Part shown: positions 4,973-60,813 of the stretch, one piece after another
How the letters are laid out: the number at the start of each line of letters is the position of its first letter
Numbering within the stretch: position 1 is the first letter of the stretch
Assembly (NCBI GenBank): GCA_038145705.1
Contig: JAYQQF010000004.1
Location: forward strand, 75,523 to 139,522
Direction of reading: 5' to 3'
DNA: 64,000 nt
Source of the DNA: Alphaproteobacteria bacterium
GTDB lineage: Bacteria; Pseudomonadota; Alphaproteobacteria; SMXQ01
Made by a program: the position numbers and the translations under genes
The notes under the pieces: model-generated
Told to the model about the DNA's origin: nothing
The model's input: only the letters and a program-made list of their open reading frames with translations
Database searches by the model: none

Positions 4973-5169
4973 ATCGAAATCTGCTGTGGAAAACCTTGGT
5001 TTTTCAAGCCCCCGGCAAGATTGACGGGTTGACGGCCCCCGGCCTGGCCCCTTAGCTTTTGTCCGACAGGCATACAAGGGACCTTCCGGCGCATACAAAT
5101 ATCATTAAAGCCGGTACGGCAAGCCCTGCTCGGTCACCGCGTTCAAATTTTCGCAAACGGGAGGCACCT

Positions 5170-6207
5170 ATGCGAATCCACTCCACCACAGTCACCACGA
5201 CGGCCGCCCGCCTTGGCGTGGCGACCGGCCTTGCCGCCGCCTTCGCGATCGGCGCCTATGCGGGGTCCGCCATTGCCGCGGAAAAGTTCCCGACCAAGGA
5301 AATCCAGATCATCAGCCATGCCGCGCCCGGCGGCGGCACCGACGTCACTGCGCGCATGATGATGATCCGCTCGCGACGCGAACTGGCGAAGGGCAACCCC
5401 GAATACAAGGACACCGGCGCCGTCATCAACGTCGTCTACAAGCGCGGCGGTTCTGGCAAGGTCGCTCATGAATACCTGATGTCGCGCCCGGCCGACGGCC
5501 ACACCCTGATCGCGCTGACCCAGACACACTTCTACACGATCGCTCTCGGCAAGTCGCCGCTGAAGGGCCCGGAACTGGTCGGCGTGGCGCGCGCCATGGA
5601 CGATCCGACCTTCATCGTCGTCGGCAAGAACAGCAAGTACAAGACGATCGAGGAACTGATCGCCGCCTCCAAGGACAAGCCGCTGAACTGGGGCGTGTCG
5701 CAGATCGGCGGCACCGAACACGTCGGCCTTGCACGTTTCGCCAAGGCGGCAGGCATCAAGTTCAAGGTCGTGCCCTTCGGCTCCGGCGGCAAGATGGTGC
5801 AGGCGCTGCTGTCTAACGCCATCGACGCGACCCTGCCGAACGTTTCGGAAGCCGGCGGCCAGATCGAGGACGGCACGGTTCGCCCGCTGCTGCTGCTCGA
5901 CAAGGCGCGGCTGCCTGCCTACAAGAACGTCCCGACCAGCCATGAAAAGGGCTGGGCGCTGACGGTCACCACCACCCGCGGCTACGCGGTCAAGGCCGGC
6001 ACGCCGCCGGAAGTGATCAAGGCGCTGGAAAAAGGCATCCTGTCCGCGATGAAGCACGATGTCTTCGCGGGCTACCTGCGCTCCTCGGGCCTCGATCCGA
6101 AGACCAGCCCGGCCGGCTCCAAGGTCTGGACCGACCAGATCCAGGAAGAGATCAAGATCGCCCGCGAAGCGCTGGGCGAGCTCGGCCTTCTCAAGAAGAA
6201 GAAATAA
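5170..6207 (+). CDS. tctC: tripartite tricarboxylate transporter substrate-binding protein TctC (Bug family), with C-terminal KKKK
   Basis: Signal peptide followed by ISHAAPGGGTDVTARMM (the TctC signature). It precedes tctB/tctA, has a GGGAGG ribosome-binding site, and ends in LLKKKK. Confidence 0.8.
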   Translation: MRIHSTTVTTTAARLGVATGLAAAFAIGAYAGSAIAAEKFPTKEIQIISHAAPGGGTDVTARMMMIRSRRELAKGNPEYKDTGAVINVVYKRGGSGKVAHEYLMSRPADGHTLIALTQTHFYTIALGKSPLKGPELVGVARAMDDPTFIVVGKNSKYKTIEELIAASKDKPLNWGVSQIGGTEHVGLARFAKAAGIKFKVVPFGSGGKMVQALLSNAIDATLPNVSEAGGQIEDGTVRPLLLLDKARLPAYKNVPTSHEKGWALTVTTTRGYAVKAGTPPEVIKALEKGILSAMKHDVFAGYLRSSGLDPKTSPAGSKVWTDQIQEEIKIAREALGELGLLKKKK

Positions 6208-6228
6208 CGGAAGCCGGAGTATATTTCC

Positions 6229-6765
6229 GTGACCACCGGCAACGCCGGATCGACGGGTACGAAGGGCGCGCGCAAGAGCGCGCCCTTCGTTCACCGCACC
6301 GATCTCTGGATTACCATCATCATTCTCGTCGCCTGCGCGGCTCTCTGGTACGAGACCACGCGCTGGGACACCGTCGCCGCACAGCTGAGCCAGAATGTCC
6401 CGCCGACGTTCTTTCCGCGCATCATTCTGGGCTGCATCATGGCGATGTCGCTTTACCTGCCCTTTGAAAACTTCTTCAAGAAGAAGAAGGGCGCGGACCT
6501 CGATGAAGAACGGAGCAACAAGGTCGTTTCGATCACCTTCATCACGGCATTGGCGCTCGTTCTCATCGTCAGCCTGTTCGAATGGCTGGGCACCGACCTG
6601 AGCATGGTTCTCGCCTGCCTGCTGCTGCCGATCCTTTGGAACGAGCGGCGCCTCTGGGTGATCCTGCCCTTCGCCATCCTGTTCCCCCTCACCGTGCGGC
6701 TGATCTTCGTCAACGGCCTCAAGGTTCATTTCCTCCCCGGGCTCCTGGCCCCGATACTGGGATAG
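6229..6765 (+). CDS. tctB: TctB small membrane subunit of tripartite tricarboxylate transporter
   Basis: About 178 aa with 4 predicted TM helices, sitting between tctC and tctA. GTG start. Confidence 0.65.
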   Translation: MTTGNAGSTGTKGARKSAPFVHRTDLWITIIILVACAALWYETTRWDTVAAQLSQNVPPTFFPRIILGCIMAMSLYLPFENFFKKKKGADLDEERSNKVVSITFITALALVLIVSLFEWLGTDLSMVLACLLLPILWNERRLWVILPFAILFPLTVRLIFVNGLKVHFLPGLLAPILG

Positions 6766-6774
6766 CATCAGACC

Positions 6775-8286
6775 ATGGAACCGATTCTCGAGGGCATCGG
6801 CCTCATCCTCGTGCCCTACCATTTCTTCCTGATCCTGGTGGGCGTGCTGCTCGGCGTGCTCGTCGGCGCGCTGCCCGGCCTGTCGTCGACCATGGCCGTC
6901 GCCCTGCTGCTGCCGTTCACGCTGCAACTGCCGCCAATCCCGGCCATCGCCATGATGGCGGCGCTCTATTGCGCGGGCACCTTCGGCGGCTCGATCACCG
7001 CCATCCTGATCAACACCCCGGGCGCGCCGCCCGCGGTGGCGACGGCGCTCGACGGCTATCCGCTCGCCCAGAAGGGCGAGGCCGGACGCGCGCTCGGCAT
7101 CGCCGCGGTGTCGTCGGTCGTCGGCGGCATGTTCTCGCTGGTGGTGTTCATCCTGGCGGCACCGCTGCTCGCCAAGGTCGCGCTGTCGTTCCGCCCGCCC
7201 GAGTATTTCGCCCTGTCGCTGTTCGGCCTGTCGATGCTGGCCTCCATTTCCGGCAAGTCGTCGCTCAGGAACCTGATCGCCGGCGCCTTCGGCGTGCTGG
7301 TCTCGACCATCGGCGTGCACCTGACCACCGGCGTCGAGCGCTTCGTGTTCGGCGTGTCCGAATTCGTCGAAGGCATCAGCTTCGTGCCCGTGCTCATCGG
7401 TCTGTTCGCCATGGGCGAGCTGCTCAACCAGTCGCAGCGGCTCAACGAACATGTCGAGCGCATCAAGTCGGTCGCCATCAAGCTGCCGAGCTGGGCCGAG
7501 ATCGTGAAGCTGCGCTGGGTCATGCTGCGCTCGTCCATCATCGGCACCTTCATCGGCATTCTGCCCGCCGAAGGCTCCACCGTCGCCGCCATCATCGGCT
7601 ACAACGAGGCCAAGCGCTGGTCCAAGAACAAGTCGGAATTCGGCAAGGGCGCCATCGAAGGCATCGCCGGTCCGGAAGCCGCCAACAACGCCGCCACCGG
7701 CGGCGCCATGGTGCCGACACTGGCGCTCGGCATTCCGGGCTCGGGCACCACGGCGATCATCCTCGCCGCGCTGATGGTGCACGGCTTCCGTCCGGGCCCC
7801 TACCTGGTGCAGAACACGCCGCATTTCGTCTACGCGATCTTCACGGCGATGTTCCTCGCCAACATCCTGTTCCTGGTGATCGGCCTGCCGGGCGCCAAGC
7901 TGTTCGCGCGCATCACGCTGGTCAAGCGCCAGCTTTTGTGGCCCGCGGTGTTCGTGTTCTCGATGATCGGCGCCTACGCCTATCATCAGTCGGTGTTCGA
8001 CGTCTGGGTGATGCTGATCGCGGGCCTGCTCGGTTTCGTCATGCTGCGCCACGGCTTCGGCCCGGCGCCCTTCGTCATGGGACTGATCCTTGGCCGCCTC
8101 GTCGAGGAATTCTGGTCCCAGTCGATGATCATCTTCGACAACAACTGGTTCCGTTTCTTCGAAAGCTGGATCGTCGACCTGTTCCTGTTCTTCACCCTGC
8201 TCGGCTTCTTCGGACCGCTGATCTTCAAGGGCATCAACAGGATGGTCAGCCGCATGAAACCCGAAGGCCGCGTGCTGGAAGACTGA
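6775..8286 (+). CDS. tctA: TctA large membrane subunit of tripartite tricarboxylate transporter
   Basis: About 500-aa polytopic membrane protein with GAPPAVATALDGYPL and LALGIPGSGTTAIIL, both characteristic of TctA. Confidence 0.85.
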   Translation: MEPILEGIGLILVPYHFFLILVGVLLGVLVGALPGLSSTMAVALLLPFTLQLPPIPAIAMMAALYCAGTFGGSITAILINTPGAPPAVATALDGYPLAQKGEAGRALGIAAVSSVVGGMFSLVVFILAAPLLAKVALSFRPPEYFALSLFGLSMLASISGKSSLRNLIAGAFGVLVSTIGVHLTTGVERFVFGVSEFVEGISFVPVLIGLFAMGELLNQSQRLNEHVERIKSVAIKLPSWAEIVKLRWVMLRSSIIGTFIGILPAEGSTVAAIIGYNEAKRWSKNKSEFGKGAIEGIAGPEAANNAATGGAMVPTLALGIPGSGTTAIILAALMVHGFRPGPYLVQNTPHFVYAIFTAMFLANILFLVIGLPGAKLFARITLVKRQLLWPAVFVFSMIGAYAYHQSVFDVWVMLIAGLLGFVMLRHGFGPAPFVMGLILGRLVEEFWSQSMIIFDNNWFRFFESWIVDLFLFFTLLGFFGPLIFKGINRMVSRMKPEGRVLED

Positions 8287-18818: not shown

Positions 18819-20066
18819 TTATTTTTCAATGAGTTCTTCTTGCACCGGCGGTGCGCCGAGAATGCGTCCGAGCACCGAAGGCACGGCCAGGGTCGTCACC
18901 AGGGCCATCAGGACAAGCGCCGAATAGACATGATGGGTGGCGCCGCCATGAGCCGGGCCGGCCGCGACCAGGCCCGCCTCCACCGCGATGGACAGAACGA
19001 CCAGTTCCACTGCGCCGCGCGCGCTCATGCCGACGCCGACAGCGGCGGAATCGCGCGGACTTAAACCGGAGATCAGGGCCGGCACCCCTGCCCCTGCCAG
19101 CTTGGTAAGAAAGCCCGCCAGAATGATGACGAGCACGAAGACCGGTTCGAGCAGCAACGCGAAGATATCGATTTGCGCACCGATGGAAGCGAAGAAGACT
19201 GGCGCGAACAGTCCCGCCGTCACGCCGCCGATGACCAGCTTCATGCCTTCGTAGGCGCGCAGGCCCACGCGTTCCGGCTCGAAGAACAGCGCCGCCATGA
19301 ATACGCCTAGGATCCAGTGCATGCCGAGCCATTCGGCAACCAGGGCATAGGCGAAGGCAACGGCCATGAGAACGCTGAGTTCGAGCGCCGTTGCCTGCAG
19401 CGTGTGCAGGCCGCGGCTGACGCGCGGATAGACATGGACCCCGAGGATGGACGTCACCACGAAAAACACGCCGACCTTGCCGAGCAGCCAGGCGATCTCG
19501 CCCAATGCGGGAGCGCCGCCTGTCTTGATGATGGCCGTCAGAACGGCGATCAGGACAAGCCCGATGACGTCGTCGAAAAGCGCTGCGGCGACGATGGTCC
19601 GCCCGACGGCGCTATGCATCAACCCGAGATCGCTGAGTATGCGCGCCGATGCCGGGATCGCAGTGATCGACATTGCAACACCAATGAGCAGCGCGAGGGC
19701 AAACCTGTCGCTGGCGGGCGGCAGAAACATGTAACCGAGGGCGATTCCCGTGCCGAGCGGTACCAGCACCCCGCCAAGGGCGACGAAAAAAGAAGCACCT
19801 GAATGGGCGAGAATTTCCCGAGGCTTCAGTTCGATACCGGCAAGCAGCATGAGAAAGAAAATTCCCGCCGTGGCCGCGTGGTGGAATACCTCGCCCTCCA
19901 GCACCTCGACGAGGAACGGCACATCCTTGCCGAAGGCCGCTGCGGACCCGGCCAGCAGGACTCCGGCAAGGATCTCGCCGATCGTCGATGGCTGGCCGAG
20001 GCGCACTGCCCCCTCGCCGCAAGCGCGCGTCAGAACGATGATGACGAGAAGCTGAAGGAGGACCAT
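18819..20066 (-). CDS. cation:proton antiporter (CPA1/CPA2, Kef/NhaP-type)
   Basis: About 415 aa, 11-13 TM helices, N-terminal LLQLLVIIVLTRACGEGAVRLGQPSTIGEILAGVLLG, the typical antiporter start. Confidence 0.8.
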   Translation of the reverse strand: MVLLQLLVIIVLTRACGEGAVRLGQPSTIGEILAGVLLAGSAAAFGKDVPFLVEVLEGEVFHHAATAGIFFLMLLAGIELKPREILAHSGASFFVALGGVLVPLGTGIALGYMFLPPASDRFALALLIGVAMSITAIPASARILSDLGLMHSAVGRTIVAAALFDDVIGLVLIAVLTAIIKTGGAPALGEIAWLLGKVGVFFVVTSILGVHVYPRVSRGLHTLQATALELSVLMAVAFAYALVAEWLGMHWILGVFMAALFFEPERVGLRAYEGMKLVIGGVTAGLFAPVFFASIGAQIDIFALLLEPVFVLVIILAGFLTKLAGAGVPALISGLSPRDSAAVGVGMSARGAVELVVLSIAVEAGLVAAGPAHGGATHHVYSALVLMALVTTLAVPSVLGRILGAPPVQEELIEK

Positions 20067-20080
20067 GTCCGCCTCTTTTT

Positions 20081-21472
20081 TTACCGGCTATTGGCGAAAA
20101 AACCGCCGCGCACGGCCTCGTCGAACAGATACGCCGCAACCGGTGCGATACCCAGCGGCAGCGAGGGACCATCGGGTTCCATGTAGATGTGGCTGCCCGC
20201 ATCGATCATCGTCAAATGTACCCGCGGCGCGGGACGTAGGGCTTCCAGCATCGGAATGACGACGGCACGAAAAGCCTCCTCGGAGTTATCCCGGCTGAAG
20301 CGCGAGTTGACGAAGTAGATGGGCGGCACCGGACGTGCGTCCCTGCCTGTGCGGTAGCGCCCGTAATCGAGATAGCGTTCGACCAGCGCGCGTGTTTCCG
20401 CCCGCCCGAGGCCGAGCCGGCGCGCCGCGACGCGGGCGGCTTTTGCCAAAGTGCCATCGACATTGTGGGTGACGGGGAATTCAGCCTTGAACTGCGGGCG
20501 CAGCCGCTCCTCTTGCCAGCCGTCCAGGATTTCTTCCATGAGCCAGGGCAGGCGCATCAGCGCCGCGGCACCTTCGCGCCCCAGCGCCTCGGGCCCCGAA
20601 TAGCGCGCCCGGTCGCGCCAGGTACGCAGATAAAGATCGGTGAAGGGATCGTGCAGGACGTCGTCGGGCTCCCTCGGACCGGCCTTGGCGTAGCCCTTGA
20701 TCTTGCCCATTGAACCGGACCACGCGTGCTTGGCGCGGTTGATGACGCCGATGGGCGCGGTTTCCACTTCGGTCTGGCCCGCGCAGTTCTCCAGCCGCTG
20801 GCTCAGGATCGCGGTGAAGGCACCGCCTGTCGAATGGCCATGCAGGTGAACCGAGTATTCGTCGACAGGAAAGTGCCGTCGGCAGGCTTCGAGCATTCCA
20901 TCTTCAAAGGCCACCGGCCAGGCCGCCATGCGTTCGTAAAACAATGTTCCCGGACGCGCGCGCGCGAAAGTGCGGATGCCGTACCGGGCCCGCAGCTTGT
21001 CGTCCCGGACTAGGTCGTACTGATCGCGGGTGATGACTTCGCCCTTTTTCCAGAGCGGCATGCGGGCCAACCCGTCGGCCTCGATGGTGTCTCCGGGCCA
21101 GTCCCGGGACGGATCTGGAAGGTAGAGCCGGCCCGGAAAAGTCATCGACACGATCTTGTAGCCGAAGCGCTGGCTGAGCAGCAGCGCCAGCGCTTCGACC
21201 GACTTGTAATCGCCGTTGCCCCCATGCAGCAGAAAGAAACCGGCCTTGCGGCCATCGGCTCCGCGTGTGACCGGGCCGGCCGGGGTGTAGGTCATGACGC
21301 CGATATCCCAGTCGAGACCGAGCGCGGATATACGAAAGACATCCTCCCGCTGCACGATCTTGCGCCTGCGCCGGCCCATCACCGAACGCGAGAGCGTTTC
21401 AGCCCGCTCCCTGGTGATTTCCGAGGGCAGGCCTGCCCCCGTTTTCACCGCAGATTTACCCCGCTTCGCCAT
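20081..21472 (-). CDS. alpha/beta-hydrolase-fold protein with about 200-aa C-terminal extension
   Basis: FFLLHGGNGD (oxyanion HGG) and HLHGHSTGG (GxSxG nucleophile). GGAGGA lies 7 nt before the ATG. Function unknown. Confidence 0.55.
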   Translation of the reverse strand: MAKRGKSAVKTGAGLPSEITRERAETLSRSVMGRRRRKIVQREDVFRISALGLDWDIGVMTYTPAGPVTRGADGRKAGFFLLHGGNGDYKSVEALALLLSQRFGYKIVSMTFPGRLYLPDPSRDWPGDTIEADGLARMPLWKKGEVITRDQYDLVRDDKLRARYGIRTFARARPGTLFYERMAAWPVAFEDGMLEACRRHFPVDEYSVHLHGHSTGGAFTAILSQRLENCAGQTEVETAPIGVINRAKHAWSGSMGKIKGYAKAGPREPDDVLHDPFTDLYLRTWRDRARYSGPEALGREGAAALMRLPWLMEEILDGWQEERLRPQFKAEFPVTHNVDGTLAKAARVAARRLGLGRAETRALVERYLDYGRYRTGRDARPVPPIYFVNSRFSRDNSEEAFRAVVIPMLEALRPAPRVHLTMIDAGSHIYMEPDGPSLPLGIAPVAAYLFDEAVRGGFFANSR

Positions 21473-21715
21473 CCTTCTATCCTCCGCAGCCCTCTCGCGA
21501 ACCGACCGATTCGTTGTTAGCCGGACGGGTCCGATGCTTCAAGTTTCAACGGAACCGGTCAAAAGGAAAGAAATATCGCTTTGCCATCAATAATTTGCAA
21601 AGATTATGACAAATTTTTTAGTCAGGCTTGATCATGGTCGGAATATCGCTATCCTTTTAAGAAATAATAAGAATCAGAAACGCCCCGCACGCAGAACAGC
21701 TGGGAGTACTTCACA

Positions 21716-23026
21716 ATGAAAATCGTCCGGAAAATACGTAACTATTCTATGGCAGTGCTTGCCATGACGTCTGGTTTTGCTTTGGCAGCCCATGCCGATG
21801 CAATTTCTGACTTCTACAAAGGCAAGGATATCGTGGTCTATGTCGGCTCCGGCCCCGGGGGCGGGTACGACACCTACGCCCGCATGATGGGCCGCCACAT
21901 GGGCCGCCACATCCCAAGCAACCCCAACTTCATCGTCAAGAACATGGATGGCGCGGGTTCGATCATCGCTGCCAACTATGTCTATAACGTCGCCCCCCAG
22001 GACGGCACCGTGATCGCGGCGTTGCAGCGCAACGCACCCATCGTGCAGATCATGGGCCAGAAGGGCCCGAAGTTCGAGGCGACCAAGTTCAACTGGCTCG
22101 GCAGCTTCAACAACGAAGTCGGCATCATTGCCGTTGCCAAGCGGACCGGCGTCAAGAAGTTCGAGGACCTGTACGGAAAGGAAGTGCTGTTCGGCTCTAC
22201 CGGCCCGAACGACACGGAATTCTATCCTGCGCTGATCGCCAACACGCTGGCGGCGAAGGTCCGCCTGATCAAGGGCTATCCGTCCACGCCGCCGACCCAT
22301 CTCGCGATGGAGCGCGGCGAGGTCGATGCAATCAGCCAGTCCTGGGCGTCCTTCACGCACCAGTCGAACCTCTATTCGAAGGGCGAGATGGTGCTGCTGG
22401 CCCAGCTGTCGCTGAAGCCGCTGCCCGAACTCAAGGCCAAGGGCGTACCGCTGCTGATGGATCTCGTCGACGAGAAGCACCTGCAGCCCGGGTACACCAA
22501 GGAGCAGGTTCAGACACTCTACCGCCTGCTGATGGCAACCAAGACGATGGGCCGTCCCTTCGCGCTTGGCCCCAAGGTTCCGGCCGACAAGGTCAAGGTT
22601 CTGCGTACCGCCTTCAACAAGACGACCGAAGACAAGAAGTTCGTCGATGAGGCCAACAAGCAGAGCCGCGACCTCAGCCTCGTCACCGGCGATGAAATCC
22701 AGGACATCGTCGAGAAAATGGCCTCGGCTCCCAAGGAGGTTCTTGAAAAGCTCGAATACGTGAGCCAGTGGCACGGCCCGGTCAAGACCGCCAAGGTCGA
22801 GATTCCGAAGCACACCGGCAAGATCACCAAGATCGAAAAAGGTGGGCGCAAGATCACCGTCGATGCCGAAGGCAAGAAGGTATCGGCGAAGATTTCCGGC
22901 TCGCGCACCAAGATCAAGGTGGGCGGCAAGGCCGCCAAGCGTTCGGCATTCAAGGAAGGCATGACGTGTTCGATCAGCCTGCCGCCCGGCTCCAAGGAAG
23001 CCACGGCAGTCGACTGCAAGGGCTGA
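21716..23026 (+). CDS. TctC/Bug-like periplasmic solute-binding protein paralogue with about 85-aa Lys-rich C-terminal extension
   Basis: Signal peptide, DFYKGKDIVVYVGSGPGGGYDTYARMMGRHMG (Bug-like phosphate/carboxylate clamp), then an extra C-terminal domain HGPVKTAKVEIPK...CSISLPPGSKEATAVDCKG. Family assignment is distant. Confidence 0.55.
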   Translation: MKIVRKIRNYSMAVLAMTSGFALAAHADAISDFYKGKDIVVYVGSGPGGGYDTYARMMGRHMGRHIPSNPNFIVKNMDGAGSIIAANYVYNVAPQDGTVIAALQRNAPIVQIMGQKGPKFEATKFNWLGSFNNEVGIIAVAKRTGVKKFEDLYGKEVLFGSTGPNDTEFYPALIANTLAAKVRLIKGYPSTPPTHLAMERGEVDAISQSWASFTHQSNLYSKGEMVLLAQLSLKPLPELKAKGVPLLMDLVDEKHLQPGYTKEQVQTLYRLLMATKTMGRPFALGPKVPADKVKVLRTAFNKTTEDKKFVDEANKQSRDLSLVTGDEIQDIVEKMASAPKEVLEKLEYVSQWHGPVKTAKVEIPKHTGKITKIEKGGRKITVDAEGKKVSAKISGSRTKIKVGGKAAKRSAFKEGMTCSISLPPGSKEATAVDCKG

Positions 23027-23199
23027 TCCACCCCCATAAAATCCGCGGCTTTCGCGGCCCTTCGGCACCCCCGGTTTTCCGGGGGTGCCTTTTTTGCGCC
23101 ACTTTGTAGCCCTATAGCCACAGCCAGCTTGCGTCCCCTCATGGGGCCGGTTAGAACCGCCAATCCGGTTCTTTCTCTCAATTCACTAGGGAGTCTTCC

Positions 23200-24507
23200 A
23201 TGCGTTTCACCCACATCATGACCGCTGCTGCAGCCCTGTGCGGCATGTTTGCAGCAGGCCCTGCCTCTGCCGATGCCATTGCCGATTTCTACAAGGGCAA
23301 GCGTATCCAGTTGCTGGTCGGTTCCGGCCCGGGCGGCGGCTACGACGTCTATGCGCGCATGCTGTCGCGCCACATGGGCCGCCATATCCCCGGCAACCCG
23401 GGCTTCCTCGTGAAGAACATGGAAGGCGCCGGCTCGATCGTCATGGCGAACTACGTCTTCAACGTCGCGCCCAAGGACGGCTCCGTGATCGCCGGCATGC
23501 AGCGCAACGCGGCGATGGCCGAGTTGATGGGCCAGAAGGGTCCGAAGTTCAAGTCGGTCGAACTCAACTGGCTGGGCAGCCTTGCCGACGAACCGGGCGC
23601 CTGCGCCATTGCCACGCGCACCAACGTCAAGTCGTTCGAAGAAGTCTTCACCCGCACCTTCATCATGGGTGGCACGGGCCCGAACGACACCGAAATCAAC
23701 CCGGCGCTCATCAATAACGCGCTCGGCGGCAAGTTCCGCCTGATCAAGGGCTATCCCTCGACGCCGCCTATCCACCTCGCGATCGAGCGCGGTGAAGTGG
23801 ACGGCATCTGCCAGTCTTGGGCGTCGCTCAGCGATCAGGGCGGCCCGATGATCCGTGCGGGCACGCTGAAGCCGATCATCCAGCTGACCATCAAGCCGGT
23901 GCCTGAACTCTCCAAGATGGGCGTGCCGACCATTTTCGACGTGATCAAGACCGGCAAGCACCTCGGTGCCGGCGTCACCCAGGAAGAGGCTTCCGCCTAC
24001 TTCCAGATCCTGATGGGCGTGCGCGTCATGGGTCGCCCGTTCGCGATGGCGGCAAAGGTCCCGGCCGACCGCGTCAAGGCGATGCGCGTGGCTTTCGATG
24101 CCACCGCCAAGGACGCCCAGTTCCAGGCAGAAGCGAAGAAACTCAAGCGTGACGTGGACCTCATCACCGGCGACGAAATCCAGAAGATCGTCGCCGAAAT
24201 GGCGGCCCAGCCCAAGTCGGCGCTGGCCAAGCTCGACGACATGCTGAAGTTCAAGGGCCCCACCCAGACCGCCAAGGTCGAACAGCCCAAGTTCTCGGGC
24301 AAGATCTCGAAGGTCATCGAGGGCGGGCGCAAGATCGCGCTCAGCGTCGGCGGCAAGGACGTGCAGACCGGCATTTCCGGTTCGCGCACCAAGATCACCG
24401 TCGCCGGCAAGGCGGCCAACCGCAGCGCTTTCAAGGAAGGCATGGAGTGCAACGTCACCCTGCCGAACGAAGGCGCCAAGGAAGCCGCCAACGTGGACTG
24501 CAAGTAG
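23200..24507 (+). CDS. TctC/Bug-like periplasmic solute-binding protein paralogue with the same Lys-rich C-terminal extension
   Basis: Tandem paralogue of the previous gene: ADFYKGKRIQLLVGSGPGGGYDVYARMLSRHMG, C-terminal FKGPTQTAKVEQPK...CNVTLPNEGAKEAANVDCK. GGGAG ribosome-binding site. Confidence 0.55.
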   Translation: MRFTHIMTAAAALCGMFAAGPASADAIADFYKGKRIQLLVGSGPGGGYDVYARMLSRHMGRHIPGNPGFLVKNMEGAGSIVMANYVFNVAPKDGSVIAGMQRNAAMAELMGQKGPKFKSVELNWLGSLADEPGACAIATRTNVKSFEEVFTRTFIMGGTGPNDTEINPALINNALGGKFRLIKGYPSTPPIHLAIERGEVDGICQSWASLSDQGGPMIRAGTLKPIIQLTIKPVPELSKMGVPTIFDVIKTGKHLGAGVTQEEASAYFQILMGVRVMGRPFAMAAKVPADRVKAMRVAFDATAKDAQFQAEAKKLKRDVDLITGDEIQKIVAEMAAQPKSALAKLDDMLKFKGPTQTAKVEQPKFSGKISKVIEGGRKIALSVGGKDVQTGISGSRTKITVAGKAANRSAFKEGMECNVTLPNEGAKEAANVDCK

Positions 24508-24528
24508 CCGGTCCGACGCAGTTATAGT

Positions 24529-24563
24529 AAAAACGGGTGGCCGGACCGGCCACCCGTTTTTCT
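24529..24563 (+). terminator. rho-independent terminator after Bug-like tandem
   Basis: Perfect 12-bp palindrome acgggtggccgg-a-ccggccacccgt followed by ttttt. Confidence 0.7.
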
Positions 24564-24584
24564 TTCAGGGGAAGGAATCGAACC

Positions 24585-25316
24585 ATGCGTCAACTGATCG
24601 CCTGCGTCTTTGCCCTGTGTTTTGCGCTGCCCGCCATGGGCGCCGAATTCAGCTATAAAACCGGCCCCAAGGAAATGCGGGTCGATGTCTATGCCCCCGA
24701 AGGCAAGACGCCGCGCGCGCTTGTTCTCGTGCTGCATACGAGCGGTGGCTTGCAGTCGGCCGACACGGACTATGCGAAGAAACTGGTGGCACAAGGGTAC
24801 GCTGCGGCAGTGCCGCATTTTCTCGATGCCTACGGCATCACACCCCAGCAGCGCCGTCACACCTGGACGAATTACCGCGATACGTTTACCGGGGAATTCT
24901 CGCGCATCGCCGACGAGGTCTCGGCGCGCCTCAAGACCGATCGCGCGCGGGTGCTCGCCGTCGGGTTTTCCAACGGCGGTTACTGGGCGGCCTATCTCGC
25001 CGGCAAGGGCGTGATCAAGGCGGGTGTCTGCTATTACGGCGCGCTGACCGAAGCGGGCAACGACCGCGAACTCGAACATCTCGGCGGGGCCCTGAAAGGT
25101 CGCCCCGTGCCGGTGCTCATCATGCACGGCACGGCCGACGACACGGTGCCCGTCGGTGCCGCGCGGCGCCTGCAGAAACAGATCCAGGGCAATCCCAGCG
25201 CGGTCGTGATCTACGAAGGCGCCGAGCACCGTTTTGAACGCGAAAGCGGCGCGGCCAACGAAAAAGCCACCGCCGACGCCTGGAAACGCACCCTCGATTT
25301 CCTTGCCGCGCAGTAA
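24585..25316 (+). CDS. dienelactone hydrolase family protein (secreted)
   Basis: Signal peptide MRQLIACVFALCFALPAMGA, GFSNGGYWAAYLA nucleophile elbow, and HGTADDTVP. GGAAGGA ribosome-binding site. Confidence 0.75.
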   Translation: MRQLIACVFALCFALPAMGAEFSYKTGPKEMRVDVYAPEGKTPRALVLVLHTSGGLQSADTDYAKKLVAQGYAAAVPHFLDAYGITPQQRRHTWTNYRDTFTGEFSRIADEVSARLKTDRARVLAVGFSNGGYWAAYLAGKGVIKAGVCYYGALTEAGNDRELEHLGGALKGRPVPVLIMHGTADDTVPVGAARRLQKQIQGNPSAVVIYEGAEHRFERESGAANEKATADAWKRTLDFLAAQ

Positions 25317-36464: not shown

Positions 36465-36646
36465 GGTCCGTCGCACCTGCCCTGTTCTGAATGTTTGATA
36501 CAGGATAGGCCAAGCCGGGGGCCGGGCAAAGGCCCGCCCGCGGCAGGACTGCAAAATCCAGTTGCGCGATGCCGGGCGACGGCAGCAAACTCCCGCCAAA
36601 ACAGGGCCCCAAGACCCCGGATCAACTCTTCCCAGACGAGGCAATC

Positions 36647-37657
36647 ATGATTTCCCTCCGTATCCTCGGCGCCGCAGCGGCGGCGTCCGTCTTCTTCTGT
36701 GCGGCACAGGGCGCTGCCCTCGCCCAGGACTTCAAGGGCAAGACCGTCAGGGTCATCGTCGGGTTCTCCCCAGGCGGCGGCTACGACGCCTATGGCCGCC
36801 TGATCGCGCGCCACATCGGCAAGCAGATCGACGGCAAGCCCACGGTCATCGTGCAGAACATGCCCGGTGCGGGTTCGATGACGGCGATCCGCTATCTCGA
36901 CGCGGGCGGGCCCAAGGACGGCACCGCCATGACGATCTTCAATCCGGGCCTGATCACCCAGTCGCTCACGGACCCGAAGAAGGCGCCGATCGACTTCACC
37001 AAGCTGCGCTTCATAGGCTCGGCCTCGTCCGATATCCGGCTCTGCTACGCCTGGGGCGCGACCGGCATCAAGTCGATGGACGATTTCCTCAAGCGTCCGC
37101 AGATCATCATGGGCGGCACCACGTCCGGCTCTTCGGCCTACGTGAACGGCGCGCTGCTGCGCAACATGTTCGGCGCCAAAATCAAGCACGTGCTGGGCTA
37201 TCCCGGCTCGGCCGAAATGCGCATCGCAATCGAGCGCGGCGAACTTGAAGCCGACTGCGGCGCATGGGGTTCGACGCCCCAGTCCTGGATCAAGGACAAA
37301 AAGATCAACATGCTGGTGCGCTTCTCCAAGGCCTCCGCGCCCGACATGCCGCAGATGCCCTACATCATGGATTTCGCCAAAGGAGCTGAACAGCGCCAGA
37401 TCCTGAACGTCATCCTGGCGCCGAGCGAGATCGGCCGGCCCTTCGTCCAGTCAGCGAAGGTCCCCGCGCAGGCGCTCTCCACCCTGCGCAAGGCGTTTGT
37501 CGCCACGGTCAAGGACAAGGCATTCATGGCCGAAGCCGACAAGGGCAACCGCGAAATCATCGGCCCGATGAGCGGCGAGGAAGCCGAAGCGGCCGTTCGC
37601 GAGATTTATGCCACCCCCAAGGCGGTCATCGCCAAGGTGGGCGGCATGATCAAATAA
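36647..37657 (+). CDS. TctC/Bug-like periplasmic solute-binding protein paralogue
   Basis: Signal peptide followed by DFKGKTVRVIVGFSPGGGYDAYGRLIARHIG. About 336 aa, no C-terminal extension. Confidence 0.55.
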   Translation: MISLRILGAAAAASVFFCAAQGAALAQDFKGKTVRVIVGFSPGGGYDAYGRLIARHIGKQIDGKPTVIVQNMPGAGSMTAIRYLDAGGPKDGTAMTIFNPGLITQSLTDPKKAPIDFTKLRFIGSASSDIRLCYAWGATGIKSMDDFLKRPQIIMGGTTSGSSAYVNGALLRNMFGAKIKHVLGYPGSAEMRIAIERGELEADCGAWGSTPQSWIKDKKINMLVRFSKASAPDMPQMPYIMDFAKGAEQRQILNVILAPSEIGRPFVQSAKVPAQALSTLRKAFVATVKDKAFMAEADKGNREIIGPMSGEEAEAAVREIYATPKAVIAKVGGMIK

Positions 37658-57912: not shown

Positions 57913-58980
57913 TTACTTGCTCTTCTTCTTTTTCTTGGAGACCGCGGGCGGCCAGAGCTTCGCCGCGACCTTCACGATGTCCTTGGGCGACGCATAGGCC
58001 TTCTTCAGCGCCACCGCGATTTCGGCGCCGGTCATCGGATCGGGCGTGATGTGCATCTTGCCCGCGTCGGCGAGGAACTTCGGATCCTTCATGGTGTCGT
58101 CGAAGGCCTTGCGCAGCGCCTTGACCAGATACTGCGGCACACCTGGCGGGAACAGGTAGGGGCGGCCCACGTTGTTCTTCACCGAAAGAACCTCGAGCGC
58201 CTTCTTGTGATCTGGATTGGTCACGTATTCGGACAGCAGCGGCACGTCGGGAAGCTGCTTGATCCGTTTCGGCGCATCCTGCACGAGGAAACGGATCTTC
58301 TTTTCCCTGAGCCAGCCGGGATCGGCCGCTTCATAGGTGTCGTAGGAGAAGCCGCAGATGCCCTCGACCTCACCGCGCTCGACGGCTAGGCGCATGCCGC
58401 GGGTGTTATAGCCGGAGATCACCTTGAACTTGGTGCCGAGCAGCGTGTTCAGCATCAGCGGCGTCTTCGCCGAATTGCCGGAAAGGCCCGTTGTAGATAC
58501 GCGCACCTCCTGCTTCTTGACGTCCTCGATGGTCTTGACCGGGCTCGTGTGCCAGATCATGCAAGTGTTGTACTGGGTGGTGATCGAACCGATCCATTCG
58601 AACTTGGTCGAGTCGAACTGCGCCCGGTTGTTGCCGAGCAGCGGCTCGAGCAGGTTGGTGTTGTACGTCATACCCATCACCGAACCGTCGCGGGGCGCCA
58701 CGTTGTAGAGCCAGTTGGTGCCGCGAATGCCGCTGGCACCCGGCATGTTCTGGTTGATCATGCTGGGCTTGCCGGGAACATGATTGCCGATGTGGCGCGA
58801 CAACAGACGCGAATAGGTGTCATAGCCGCCGCCCGCGCCGGAAACGATGGTCATCGTCAGGTTCTTGCCCTTGTAGAAGGCCGCGGCCGATTGGGCCTGG
58901 GCCGGCGACGCCGCGCCCAAGGCCAGGCCGACGGCCAGCGCCGTTGTCCCCAGAAATACGGTTTTCGAGTGTGTTTTCAT
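57913..58980 (-). CDS. TctC/Bug-like periplasmic solute-binding protein paralogue with C-terminal KKKKKSK
   Basis: Signal peptide, AFYKGKNLTMTIVSGAGGGYDTYSRLLSRHIG. Start set at internal Met MKTHSK by residue counting from the ORF-track end. Confidence 0.55.
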   Translation of the reverse strand: MKTHSKTVFLGTTALAVGLALGAASPAQAQSAAAFYKGKNLTMTIVSGAGGGYDTYSRLLSRHIGNHVPGKPSMINQNMPGASGIRGTNWLYNVAPRDGSVMGMTYNTNLLEPLLGNNRAQFDSTKFEWIGSITTQYNTCMIWHTSPVKTIEDVKKQEVRVSTTGLSGNSAKTPLMLNTLLGTKFKVISGYNTRGMRLAVERGEVEGICGFSYDTYEAADPGWLREKKIRFLVQDAPKRIKQLPDVPLLSEYVTNPDHKKALEVLSVKNNVGRPYLFPPGVPQYLVKALRKAFDDTMKDPKFLADAGKMHITPDPMTGAEIAVALKKAYASPKDIVKVAAKLWPPAVSKKKKKSK

Positions 58981-59279
58981 GCTTTGCTCCCGGTGAAACG
59001 CCCTGATTTGCGTTGTTATTGGACTGGGTTGTTCTTGTTGTTCTTCGTTTTTCTCCAAGGGCTTGGGTGCCAATGGAAATCACCTGCCGGCCGCGAAGGG
59101 CCAGCTTACGCTCGGTCATGTTATGGAAATTCTATCCGCCGCCCCCCGATGAGTCGAGGCTGCTATTTTCGCAGAGAACAGGGCTTATGGCGTAGTGCGC
59201 GCGGGCACCGCCACCGGGCTGCCAATAGGCCCGGCAGGCGGACGAAGGCCGCGAAATCACCCCCCTTGCGCGGGCGCTT

Positions 59280-60344
59280 CTACTCTTCTTTCTTCTTCTT
59301 TTTCTTCTTTTTCTTCTTCTGCGTAATCGCGCTGATTTTCTGAACGATATCGTCCGGGGTTTCGGCAAGGTCGGCGACGACCTTCGTCAGTTCCTCGCCC
59401 GTCAGCGCGGTAATCACCAGCCCCATCTTCCTGCTTTCCGCGATGAAAGCCGGGTCCGCCATCGTGGCGTCGAAGGCACGGCGCAAAGCATTCACGCGTG
59501 CCGCCGGAACACCGGGGGGCGCGGCGATAGGACGCCCCAGTTCGGTACTTGAGAAAAAGAACGCAAGGGTCTGGCGCTGGTCCTTGGTCTTTACATAGTC
59601 GAAAACGCTGGGCGCCCCCAGTCCCGGCACCCTTTTCTGCTCGAGATTGAAAAGCGGGATCAAGTCGCCTTTCTTCTGCCAACCGGGATTGGTGCTTTCC
59701 AGCCCCGCGATCGTCTGACATATCCCTTCGACTTCGCCCTTCTCGATCGCAAATACGACGTTCTGCGCGCCCTGATATCCCTCGATGACACGGAACTTCA
59801 TGCCAAGCACGCCCCTGAGAACGACCGGGGTGTTGCTGACCGTGGTGCCGATGCCGGAACCTCCGACGATCAGCTCTCGCTCGAACAGGTCCTCGGCCTT
59901 CTGGACCTTGGCGCCCTTCCGGGCCACGCAGACACGGTTGGTCAGCTCCGGGCTGCCGATCCAGTTCATATCCCTGGTGTTGAACTTGACCGCGGGATGG
60001 TTGAGCAGGGCCTGTGTCGGGATGTTTCGCGAAAAGATCGCGATGGTGGTCCCGTCCCGGGGGGCGCGGTTGAACAGGTGGTTCGTCGCCGTTATCCCGC
60101 CCGCGCCGGGCATGTTGACCGCCACGATGTTCGGCGTGCCGGGAATTTTCTTTCCCATGTGACGGCCGATGACCCGGGCCCATTGGTCGTAACTGCCGCC
60201 CGCCGAGGTTCCGATAATGAACTGGATGTTCTTGTCCTTGTAGAACCGGGCGATTTCATCCTTGGCGGCGTCGGCAGCGGATACGGGCGGCGCGATGACA
60301 GCGGCAAACGCAGCGGCCAAGGCGATGCTAGAGAGTGTTTTCAT
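59280..60344 (-). CDS. TctC/Bug-like periplasmic solute-binding protein paralogue with C-terminal K10-EE tail
   Basis: Signal peptide, RFYKDKNIQFIIGTSAGGSYDQWARVIGRHMG, ends in ITQKKKKKKKKKKEE. GGGGGAGGG ribosome-binding site. Start at internal Met MKTLSS. Confidence 0.55.
   Translation of the reverse strand: MKTLSSIALAAAFAAVIAPPVSAADAAKDEIARFYKDKNIQFIIGTSAGGSYDQWARVIGRHMGKKIPGTPNIVAVNMPGAGGITATNHLFNRAPRDGTTIAIFSRNIPTQALLNHPAVKFNTRDMNWIGSPELTNRVCVARKGAKVQKAEDLFERELIVGGSGIGTTVSNTPVVLRGVLGMKFRVIEGYQGAQNVVFAIEKGEVEGICQTIAGLESTNPGWQKKGDLIPLFNLEQKRVPGLGAPSVFDYVKTKDQRQTLAFFFSSTELGRPIAAPPGVPAARVNALRRAFDATMADPAFIAESRKMGLVITALTGEELTKVVADLAETPDDIVQKISAITQKKKKKKKKKKEE
59283..59321. repeat. polypyrimidine/(CTT)n-like simple-sequence tract encoding the poly-Lys tail
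   Basis: ctcttctttcttcttctttttcttctttttcttcttctg, about 39 nt of uninterrupted pyrimidines on the top strand. Confidence 0.6.
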
Positions 60345-60393
60345 GATTCCCTCCCCCTGAGATTTCCAAAAGCGAAACTGGCCGTCGCGGCAA

Positions 60394-60813
60394 TCAGCCG
60401 CGCTCACGCAACTGATCGAAGCCGTTTTCGGAAAGATCGATGTTGTTGCCATCGGGATCGGTTATGCGAACCTCGGCGTAAGGACGGTCGGCCGGGCGCG
60501 GTGCCGGTTCATCCAGTCCCCATTCCTTGATCTGGTCGCCGACATCGTCGCGGCTGTCGACATGAAAGCCGATATGGTTGAGCCCGACCGGCTTGCCTTC
60601 GGCTTTGTTCTTCAGCAACGCCAGCGTGATCGTACCGTCGGTCATGAAGGTCGATCCGTTCGGGCTCTGGTGCACGATTTTCATGTCGAAAACCTCGCCG
60701 TAGAACTTGGCGAGTTTGGCCGGATCGAGCGTGACGATCGCAATGTGACGGAGCTTGCGCATGCGGTTCGAACCGCTGGTCCGGGCGCTCTCCGCGTTCT
60801 GGGTCTGTGTCAT
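60394..60813 (-). CDS. VOC-family (glyoxalase/bleomycin-resistance/extradiol-dioxygenase fold) protein
   Basis: RHIAIVTLDPAKLAKFYGEVFDM..LNHIGFHVD. GGGAGGAAAAT-ATG ribosome-binding site. Confidence 0.7.
   Translation of the reverse strand: MTQTQNAESARTSGSNRMRKLRHIAIVTLDPAKLAKFYGEVFDMKIVHQSPNGSTFMTDGTITLALLKNKAEGKPVGLNHIGFHVDSRDDVGDQIKEWGLDEPAPRPADRPYAEVRITDPDGNNIDLSENGFDQLRERG

Follow-up and report, generated by a model that had tools for sequence, protein, structure and literature searches.

Periplasmic solute receptors are textbook single-module proteins. Those of the tripartite tricarboxylate transporters (TTT) form the Bug/TctC family (PF03401), with members such as BugD, BugE, Bug27, TphC, MatC, and AdpC. 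They carry a Sec signal peptide, adopt the two-lobe Venus-flytrap fold, have a loop of PGGGxD type following strand 1, and occur in many 'orphan' copies per genome. Here, we describe two adjacent genes, A and B, from a genome of Alphaproteobacteria (GTDB lineage SMXQ01). They lie in a stretch of 64,000 nucleotides that we call the window (assembly GCA_038145705.1, contig JAYQQF010000004.1, positions 75,523 to 139,522 of the forward strand). Their products resemble the TTT receptors in all these traits, and some of their relatives stand in operons with TctA or TctBA. They are unlike the solved TTT receptors in three respects: the identity is low (13–20%), the TctC model of Pfam gives no match, and the proteins continue, beyond the part matched by these receptors of 288–302 aa, into a C-terminal tail of about 85 aa made of a linker and a barrel of the oligonucleotide/oligosaccharide-binding (OB) type. 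We are highly confident of this architecture of receptor and barrel, together with its assignment to families.

Two described families come close to the barrel. DUF5666 (PF18914), for which we found no described function, is an extracytoplasmic barrel of about 65–70 aa that shares with the tail the pattern G-x-[IV]-x-x-[IV]-[DE] ... T-x-[IV] ... G ... G-[MD]-x-[VC]. The tail differs from it by occurring in one or two copies instead of arrays of 5–12, and by a GGR turn, an SGSRT loop, a conserved Arg where the repeats have a hydrophobic residue, an inserted basic stretch, and a pair of Cys. The Cu(I)/Ag(I) chaperone CusF (PF11604) is, like the tail, a small periplasmic OB barrel, but the match between the two is weak (E 0.015, template modelling (TM) score of about 0.5, 18% identity) and the Pfam model finds no match. 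CusF binds Cu(I) through His36, Trp44, Met47, and Met49.

The closest precedent for an accessory part on a receptor is BP0403 of Bordetella pertussis, an elongated receptor of the TAXI family with extra, independently folded domains of functional importance (PMC12344293). These domains, an alpha/beta domain and a helical dimerisation domain, are N-terminal, and the protein is a lipoprotein linked to GltS; this case showed only recently that accessory receptor domains can alter the organisation of transport (PMC12344293). BP0403 is thus, like A and B, a periplasmic solute receptor with accessory domains, but it differs from them in family, in the N-terminal position of these domains, in its lipid anchor, and in the link to GltS. 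We found no paper describing a TTT or ATP-binding cassette (ABC) receptor with a barrel like that of A and B, whose parts are listed below.

21716–23026 (+): gene A, an open reading frame (ORF) of 436 aa; by its AlphaFold2 model, a secreted receptor of TTT/Bug fold with a C-terminal OB module
21716–21796 (+): putative signal peptide of gene A, aa 1–27, ending ...ALAAHA and followed by DA; hydrophobic N-terminus ending in AHA, as read from the sequence
21797–22768 (+): receptor body of gene A, aa 28–351, two-lobe Venus-flytrap fold with the GSGPGGGYD loop (AlphaFold2 and Foldseek)
22769–22807 (+): linker of gene A, aa 352–364, without secondary structure in the model and with the lowest conservation
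22808–23023 (+): OB-type barrel module of gene A, aa 365–436, with six strands in both models, OB-fold matches, and a profile–profile link to DUF5666; GGR turn at 376–378, SGSRT loop at 394–398, R409, G415-M416, C418, and C434
23200–24507 (+): gene B, an ORF for a 435-aa paralogue of gene A with identical architecture, preceded by its own AGGGAG ribosome-binding site
24289–24504 (+): OB-type barrel module of gene B, aa 364–435, with C417 and C434, by alignment to gene A

Receptor body and C-terminal barrel

The initial annotation of this locus had described two adjacent paralogues of about 435 aa. Both ORFs are present at exactly the coordinates above, and their products are 57% identical across 427 aa, in an alignment that extends through the tail; the tail sequences quoted at the time are found verbatim. 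The putative signal peptides end in AHA in protein A and in ASA in protein B, in both cases before DA, and the model of protein A has a predicted local distance difference test (pLDDT) value below 50 over residues 1–26. We predict from these N-termini that both proteins are exported by Sec to the periplasm.

The resemblance of the body to TctC/Bug receptors, also claimed early on, holds for the fold and the motif and fails at the level of Pfam. The AlphaFold2 model of the full-length protein, built on an alignment of 66 family members, has a mean pLDDT of 90.6. Searched with Foldseek against the PDB, it has only TTT receptors among its top 17 matches, at the low identities given above; the set comprises TctC Bpro_3516, TphC, a terephthalate-binding protein, BugE, BugD, Bug27, MatC, and Rpa4515. 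The best of them (4x9t) has an E-value of 3e-16 and a TM score of 0.81 normalised to the target, with 20% identity. At the sequence level, the best PDB match of the body (phmmer) is BugE (2dvz, E 1e-4). The TctC model PF03401 gave no match at E ≤1 to protein A or B. Both proteins show only sub-threshold Pfam and NCBIfam matches (TAXI, NMT1, and SsuA), and a precomputed PF03401 match is present in a minority of the close family members. The GPGGGYD and GxTGPNDTE loops are conserved in the 66-member alignment. By modelled fold and by motif (GSGPGGGYD), the body is a TTT/Bug receptor of a divergent subfamily; carboxylates, putatively bound through these two loops, are the candidate class of ligands.

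The tail consists of a linker of about 13 aa and a six-stranded barrel of 72 aa. The initial annotation called it beta-rich and Lys-rich with two conserved Cys, which agrees with what we found. The module is all-beta, with six strands, both in the full-length model, where its pLDDT is 83–93, and in a model of the tail alone (mean 81.8); in protein A, its 6 acidic residues are outnumbered by 15 Lys and 3 Arg. The architecture of about 435 aa recurs in at least 2,530 homologues, the best 120 of which are nearly all 432–441 aa long. In the 66-sequence alignment, the majority fraction is 0.79 in the tail, 0.69 in the body, and 0.55 in the linker, i.e., the tail is more conserved than the receptor that carries it. 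Its invariant residues are G368, R378, G386, S394, T398, G404, R409, G415, M416, C418, A429, and C434. We considered two trivial origins of the tail. An unstructured linker is excluded by the confident six-strand models and by the conservation above that of the body, and a chance extension by the number of homologues with the same architecture. The tail was proposed to be an accessory module, and it is indeed an autonomous extra domain: it is folded, it is better conserved than the body, and it exists as stand-alone secreted forms. Nor is it confined to this one locus; it is widespread on solute-binding proteins.

Both Cys of the tail are invariant among the 66 family members (C418 and C434 in A, C417 and C434 in B). 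Of 333 gap-free instances of the module, 312 contain the full pair, 18 lack it entirely, and 3 contain a single Cys. In the models, they occupy mirror positions of the last two strands (E417–421 and E431–435 in the full-length model, E66–70 and E80–84 in the tail-only model). Because the pair strictly co-occurs, mirrors on these strands, and belongs to a secreted protein, a disulfide between the two Cys, clamping the C-terminal strand, is the most likely arrangement. Of the structural predictions called for at the outset, the six-stranded barrel comes directly from AlphaFold2 and the disulfide from strand positions and Cys co-occurrence.

The alignment of 384 unique instances of the module revealed the constant positions: a G-G-R turn, G-K, an S-G-S-R-T loop, G, R, K, G-M, C, A, and C. 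GGR and SGSRT are retained in stand-alone and fused forms alike, which is not the case for the Cys pair and the basic insertion. These two motifs should lie at the same end of the modelled barrel because their loops close neighbouring hairpins (strands 1–2 and 3–4). With about 71 residues, the module has a median net charge of +10, and a charge of at least +5 is reached by 71% of the tails; the values in the window are +12 for A and +6 for B.

Relatives and distribution of the barrel

Searches of Pfam, NCBIfam, and PDB sequences failed to recognise the tails, and we found no name for them in public sources, where the proteins are annotated as 'TctC' or 'hypothetical protein'. The claim that the tail is unrecognised is therefore correct for sequence matches of this kind, but it does not extend to remote similarity, because the tail has an OB-type fold and is a distant relative of the DUF5666 repeats. 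The Foldseek PDB matches of the tail are nearly all OB proteins (CusF, the anticodon domain of LysRS, IF1, CspA, domain I of RuvA, and Mpa), with an S-layer self-assembly domain as the sole exception. They are all weak (E ≥0.015, TM about 0.5). In its model, the tail is a six-stranded barrel of OB-type fold.

The model PF18914 (DUF5666) gave no match at E ≤1 for the tails or the stand-alone proteins. The tail profile, in turn, finds multi-repeat arrays of PF18914 (12 stretches in P0137, E 6e-56). Aligned by hhalign with DUF5666-type repeats, it gave a probability of 98.2% and an E-value of 3e-14 over 69 columns, an E-value that is optimistic because these repeats were chosen with the tail profile. 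When single repeats were considered, 7 out of 18 matched PF18914 independently and 3 out of 18 matched CusF_Ec. Hence, the barrel is a distinct subfamily of the DUF5666/small OB-barrel superfamily that Pfam and other databases do not model. Judging from the alignments, the signature of this subfamily is the GGR turn, the SGSRT loop, a conserved Arg and Lys, G-M-x-C, and the penultimate Cys. The receptor and the barrel superfamily are already known kinds; what is new is their fusion, the subfamily signature, and the breadth of its occurrence.

Two other identities for the tail were not borne out. The Cu(I) site of a CusF metallochaperone is absent; hhalign against the CusF sequence gives a probability of 3%, and the ligand segment aligns to a gap or to SG..SR. 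The stand-alone secreted copies speak against a pure sorting signal; models of known sorting and secretion domains (e.g., the type IX secretion system CTD, TIGR04183) gave no NCBIfam or Pfam match for the tails.

We searched exhaustively for the module using HMMER with a profile of the core domain and counted cluster representatives at E ≤1e-3. This survey of the kind first suggested for the tail resulted in 597 representatives, including 218 at E ≤1e-10. We classed the best 150 of the 597. Full-length receptors that end in the module make up 28 of these, and a further 27 are pieces from the C-terminal part of receptors. About 22 are apparent stand-alone secreted proteins, 62 are short proteins of unclear origin (mostly fragments), and 11 are long proteins with 5–12 Cys-less repeats, which are DUF5666 arrays; one of these 11 has SLH domains. 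The 28 full-length receptors fall into four lineages: three are Bug-like, and the fourth, with P0217, P0260, and P0269, is of ABC type (P0217 matches SBP_bac_1/6/8). Three of the 28 end in two tandem Cys-pair modules scoring 40–64 bits per copy: P0126 (519 aa), P0127 (508 aa), and P0162 (485 aa). The stand-alone proteins have the Cys pair in most cases and lack it in some, and one of them is lipoprotein-like. These assignments indicate that the barrel is a mobile extracytoplasmic module carried by at least these four lineages of receptors. A module without a database name is thus found on receptors of two unrelated transporter classes and also alone in the periplasm, across hundreds of protein clusters, mostly of uncultured Alphaproteobacteria.

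We then used a scan of one genome per GTDB species to place the receptors in their genomic context. It gave 564 relatives, of which the best 80 are all from metagenome-assembled genomes (MAGs), mostly of Alphaproteobacteria. The loci of these 80 and the window encode 75 receptor bodies with the tail and 64 without it, with median gene-call lengths of 435 and 359 aa, respectively. On a rough neighbour-joining tree of 129 receptor bodies, the presence of the tail is structured by clade and requires at least 13 changes by gain or loss. The tandem arrangement of A and B is kept in five loci, the window included, suggesting that the duplication is old.

The genes around these receptors encode varied catabolic enzymes, and in the loci examined no family of neighbours is enriched beside tailed genes. 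In 7 loci, TctA is encoded in the vicinity of a tailed gene, and in 9 it is close to a tail-less one. Four loci (L054, L058, L074, and L035) have a tailed gene immediately upstream of TctA or of a fused TctBA, an adjacency that points to TTT transport for the tailed proteins. Two of these loci, in which the tailed receptor precedes a fused TctBA, come from bins labelled outside Alphaproteobacteria (L054 from an Akkermansiaceae MAG, L058 from a Betaproteobacteria MAG); their placement could result from horizontal transfer or from mis-binning.

Genes for the stand-alone module show a related pattern. In L095, L098, and L099, such a gene heads a cluster with TctC, TctB, and TctA on the same strand, and in L005 it abuts a TctBA-TctC operon whose tail-less receptor has the FYKGK...PGGGYD motif. 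TTT genes are missing from the surroundings of other stand-alone copies (L091, L096, and L100). Taken as a Rosetta-stone signal linking the stand-alone module to TTT uptake, this pattern is suggestive only.

Possible roles of the barrel

A role in docking to the cell wall, the membrane, or a partner, as suggested in the initial annotation, is plausible. The reading we favour, tentatively and at less than even odds, is that the barrel tethers or localises the receptor through a putative conserved face of GGR and SGSRT. The receptor body would bind a carboxylate solute and hand it to TctB/TctA. The barrel, in most cases strongly cationic, would bind a ubiquitous, probably anionic, component of the envelope via its invariant face of GGR, SGSRT, and Arg; this could be the surface of the membrane, the peptidoglycan, or some housekeeping protein of the envelope. 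We regard a ubiquitous component as the most likely partner because the module is found on receptors of unrelated transporter classes and no partner gene is linked to it. The tether would hold the receptor near the membrane and would be the non-covalent counterpart of the lipid anchors of some receptors. If this is true, Gram-negative bacteria have a protein-based alternative to lipid anchoring, which could help to explain how oligotrophs keep abundant receptors near few transporters.

Several points weigh against tethering. The geometry of the disulfide, the spatial clustering of GGR and SGSRT, and the contact between tail and body are all deduced from strand order. Charge alone cannot be the mechanism, given that 13% of the modules are neutral or acidic. 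The receptor bodies of the family are basic too (mean net charge of +11.5), so the charge of the barrel may be a trait of the lineage or the habitat. A module that stands alone has no receptor to hold in place, and a binding or adaptor role would suit it better than that of a pure anchor. Finally, the stand-alone genes beside TTT clusters in some genomes hint at a specific link to TTT uptake.

A protein–protein module, which would dock the receptor on TctB/TctA or on a sensor or else drive its self-association, much as BP0403 dimerises through its helical domain, is possible, with perhaps one chance in a few. It would account for a patch that is invariant across fused and stand-alone contexts and for the two copies on some receptors. 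The S-layer self-assembly domain 9fs9 is among the best fold matches of the tail (TM 0.55–0.59), and the DUF5666 relatives form long arrays in surface proteins, including the one with SLH domains. Accessory receptor domains have a precedent in the TAXI receptor BP0403 (PMC12344293). However, the matches to folds are all weak, as noted above, and the module rides on TTT and ABC receptors, whose membrane partners differ. Adjacency to TctA is no commoner for tailed than for tail-less genes, and the survey of neighbours revealed no candidate partner gene that co-occurs with the tail.

It is unlikely, but still conceivable, that the barrel acts as a co-receptor in handling the ligand. An oxyanion, such as a carboxylate common to the transported solutes, or a metal would bind to its Arg/Ser/Thr face, and it would pre-concentrate the ligand or pass it to the cleft, in cis when fused and in trans when alone. 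The model for such a hand-over is CusF, which delivers Cu(I) to CusB in the periplasm. CusF is also the best match of the tail among solved structures (3e6z, E 0.015), and DUF5666-type relatives touch the CusF_Ec model. The SGSRT and GGR loops are rich in residues of the type generally found in oxyanion sites. The stand-alone genes heading TctC/TctB/TctA clusters or abutting TctBA-TctC would fit a role in trans, but the copies without nearby TTT genes would not. The metal ligands of CusF have no counterpart in the tail, as reflected in the hhalign result above, and the conserved Met is shared with Cys-less DUF5666 repeats and hence looks structural. Cys pairs in the periplasm are normally oxidised. 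Furthermore, the patch is invariant even though the receptor bodies, and presumably their ligands, differ. One could extend the analogy to an entire class of periplasmic co-receptors, the organic-anion analogue of the hand-over from CusF to CusB. Such proteins would capture the common anionic moiety of organic acids, or an envelope-bound form of them, and pass it to receptors in cis (TTT and ABC fusions) or in trans (the stand-alone gene heading TTT catabolic clusters). We consider this extension slightly less probable still. If ligand handling is true, it adds a step to binding-protein-dependent uptake.

The least probable option, for which we see little room, is a barrel with no specific binding role, kept by inertia in one clade as a stabiliser or spacer (for protease protection, or as an aid to folding or export): the DUF5666 relatives resemble spacer arrays, tail-less sister receptors (40–51% identity) evidently work, and the tail was repeatedly gained or lost, but its conservation exceeds that of the body, its loop signature is invariant in fused and stand-alone forms, and a secreted form that stands alone, besides four separate fusions to receptor lineages, speaks for a selected function of its own. 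Whether it tethers receptors or handles ligands, the barrel gives a starting point for work on the function of the uncharacterised DUF5666 superfamily and warrants a family model of its own in the domain databases.

Organisation of the locus and neighbouring genes

The other features of the window that bear on the pair are the following.

21473–21715 (strand not assigned): AT-rich divergent intergenic promoter region, 243 bp between a minus-strand gene of 463 aa and gene A
23064–23095 (+): intrinsic terminator 3' of gene A, with an 11-bp GC-rich stem (hairpin 23064–23089), a 4-nt loop, and T6
24526–24568 (+): intrinsic terminator 3' of gene B, a perfect inverted repeat between an A-run and a T-run
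5059–8286 (+): canonical tctC-tctB-tctA operon (Pfam TctC PF03401, 3e-24; TctA PF01970, 1.4e-155)
6229–6765 (+): TctB-like membrane protein of 178 aa, between tctC and tctA
6775–8286 (+): TctA (PF01970)
36569–37657 (+), 57913–59073 (-), and 59280–60452 (-): three further Bug-like receptor genes without the tail, whose PF03401 matches are weak to moderate

The AT-rich promoter region of about 240 bp reported in the initial annotation is indeed present. Its GC content is about 0.42, versus about 0.63 in the flanks, and it contains a single sigma-70-like site (21606–21635, + strand, 9/12 positions matched); a GGGAG ribosome-binding site stands ahead of the ATG of gene A. The pair was also said to end at a strong terminator. 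A hairpin followed by a T-run does follow gene B (-26.8 kcal/mol, z -4.7 by folding energy), but the terminator between the two genes, which has an even lower folding energy (-30 kcal/mol, z -4.1), had been overlooked. Given this terminator and the ribosome-binding site of gene B, the two genes are probably two transcription units rather than one operon. The terminator after gene B is possibly bidirectional, in view of the A-run and T-run on its flanks.

Neither TctA nor TctB is encoded next to the pair in the window. The tctCBA operon at 5059–8286, detected by tblastn about 13 kb upstream of the pair, encodes the only TTT membrane component of the window, and its TctB/TctA are the candidate membrane partners of A and B, which are 'orphans' in the usual sense for Bug receptors. 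The three tail-less receptors of the window are 33–39% identical to the body of gene A. In total, the window encodes six TTT-type receptors for one TctBA.

The genes flanking the pair deserve brief mention. Downstream, the mechanically called ORF of a dienelactone hydrolase begins at a GTG (24537) that lies within the terminator hairpin of gene B; its true start is probably the ATG at 24586, in agreement with the 243-aa gene call in L002. Upstream, the 463-aa protein (20081–21472, -) has no Pfam family and shows a weak Lipase_3 match around a GHSTGG motif. It adjoins a Na+/H+ exchanger (18819–20066, -). Both genes are missing from the otherwise syntenic locus L004, and they look like an insertion beside the receptor pair.

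Two stand-alone modules have recurrent neighbours in other genomes. P0281, a module of 97 aa with the Cys pair, is encoded about 380 bp downstream of a DsbA/thioredoxin-like gene, on the same strand, in two contigs of a single lineage (L093 3395–4725 and L094 2554–3884). This proximity would fit a disulfide-dependent protein. A Cys-less module of 94 aa recurs in a pair with another small secreted protein, beta-rich and 88–91 aa long (…GTIAGFDKESRMVTVKGKDWEQKAKVS…), at L095 6486–6761 (-), L096 7511–7777 (+), and L098 6419–6694 (-). This protein is the most constant neighbour of the 94-aa module and may be another small-barrel relative.

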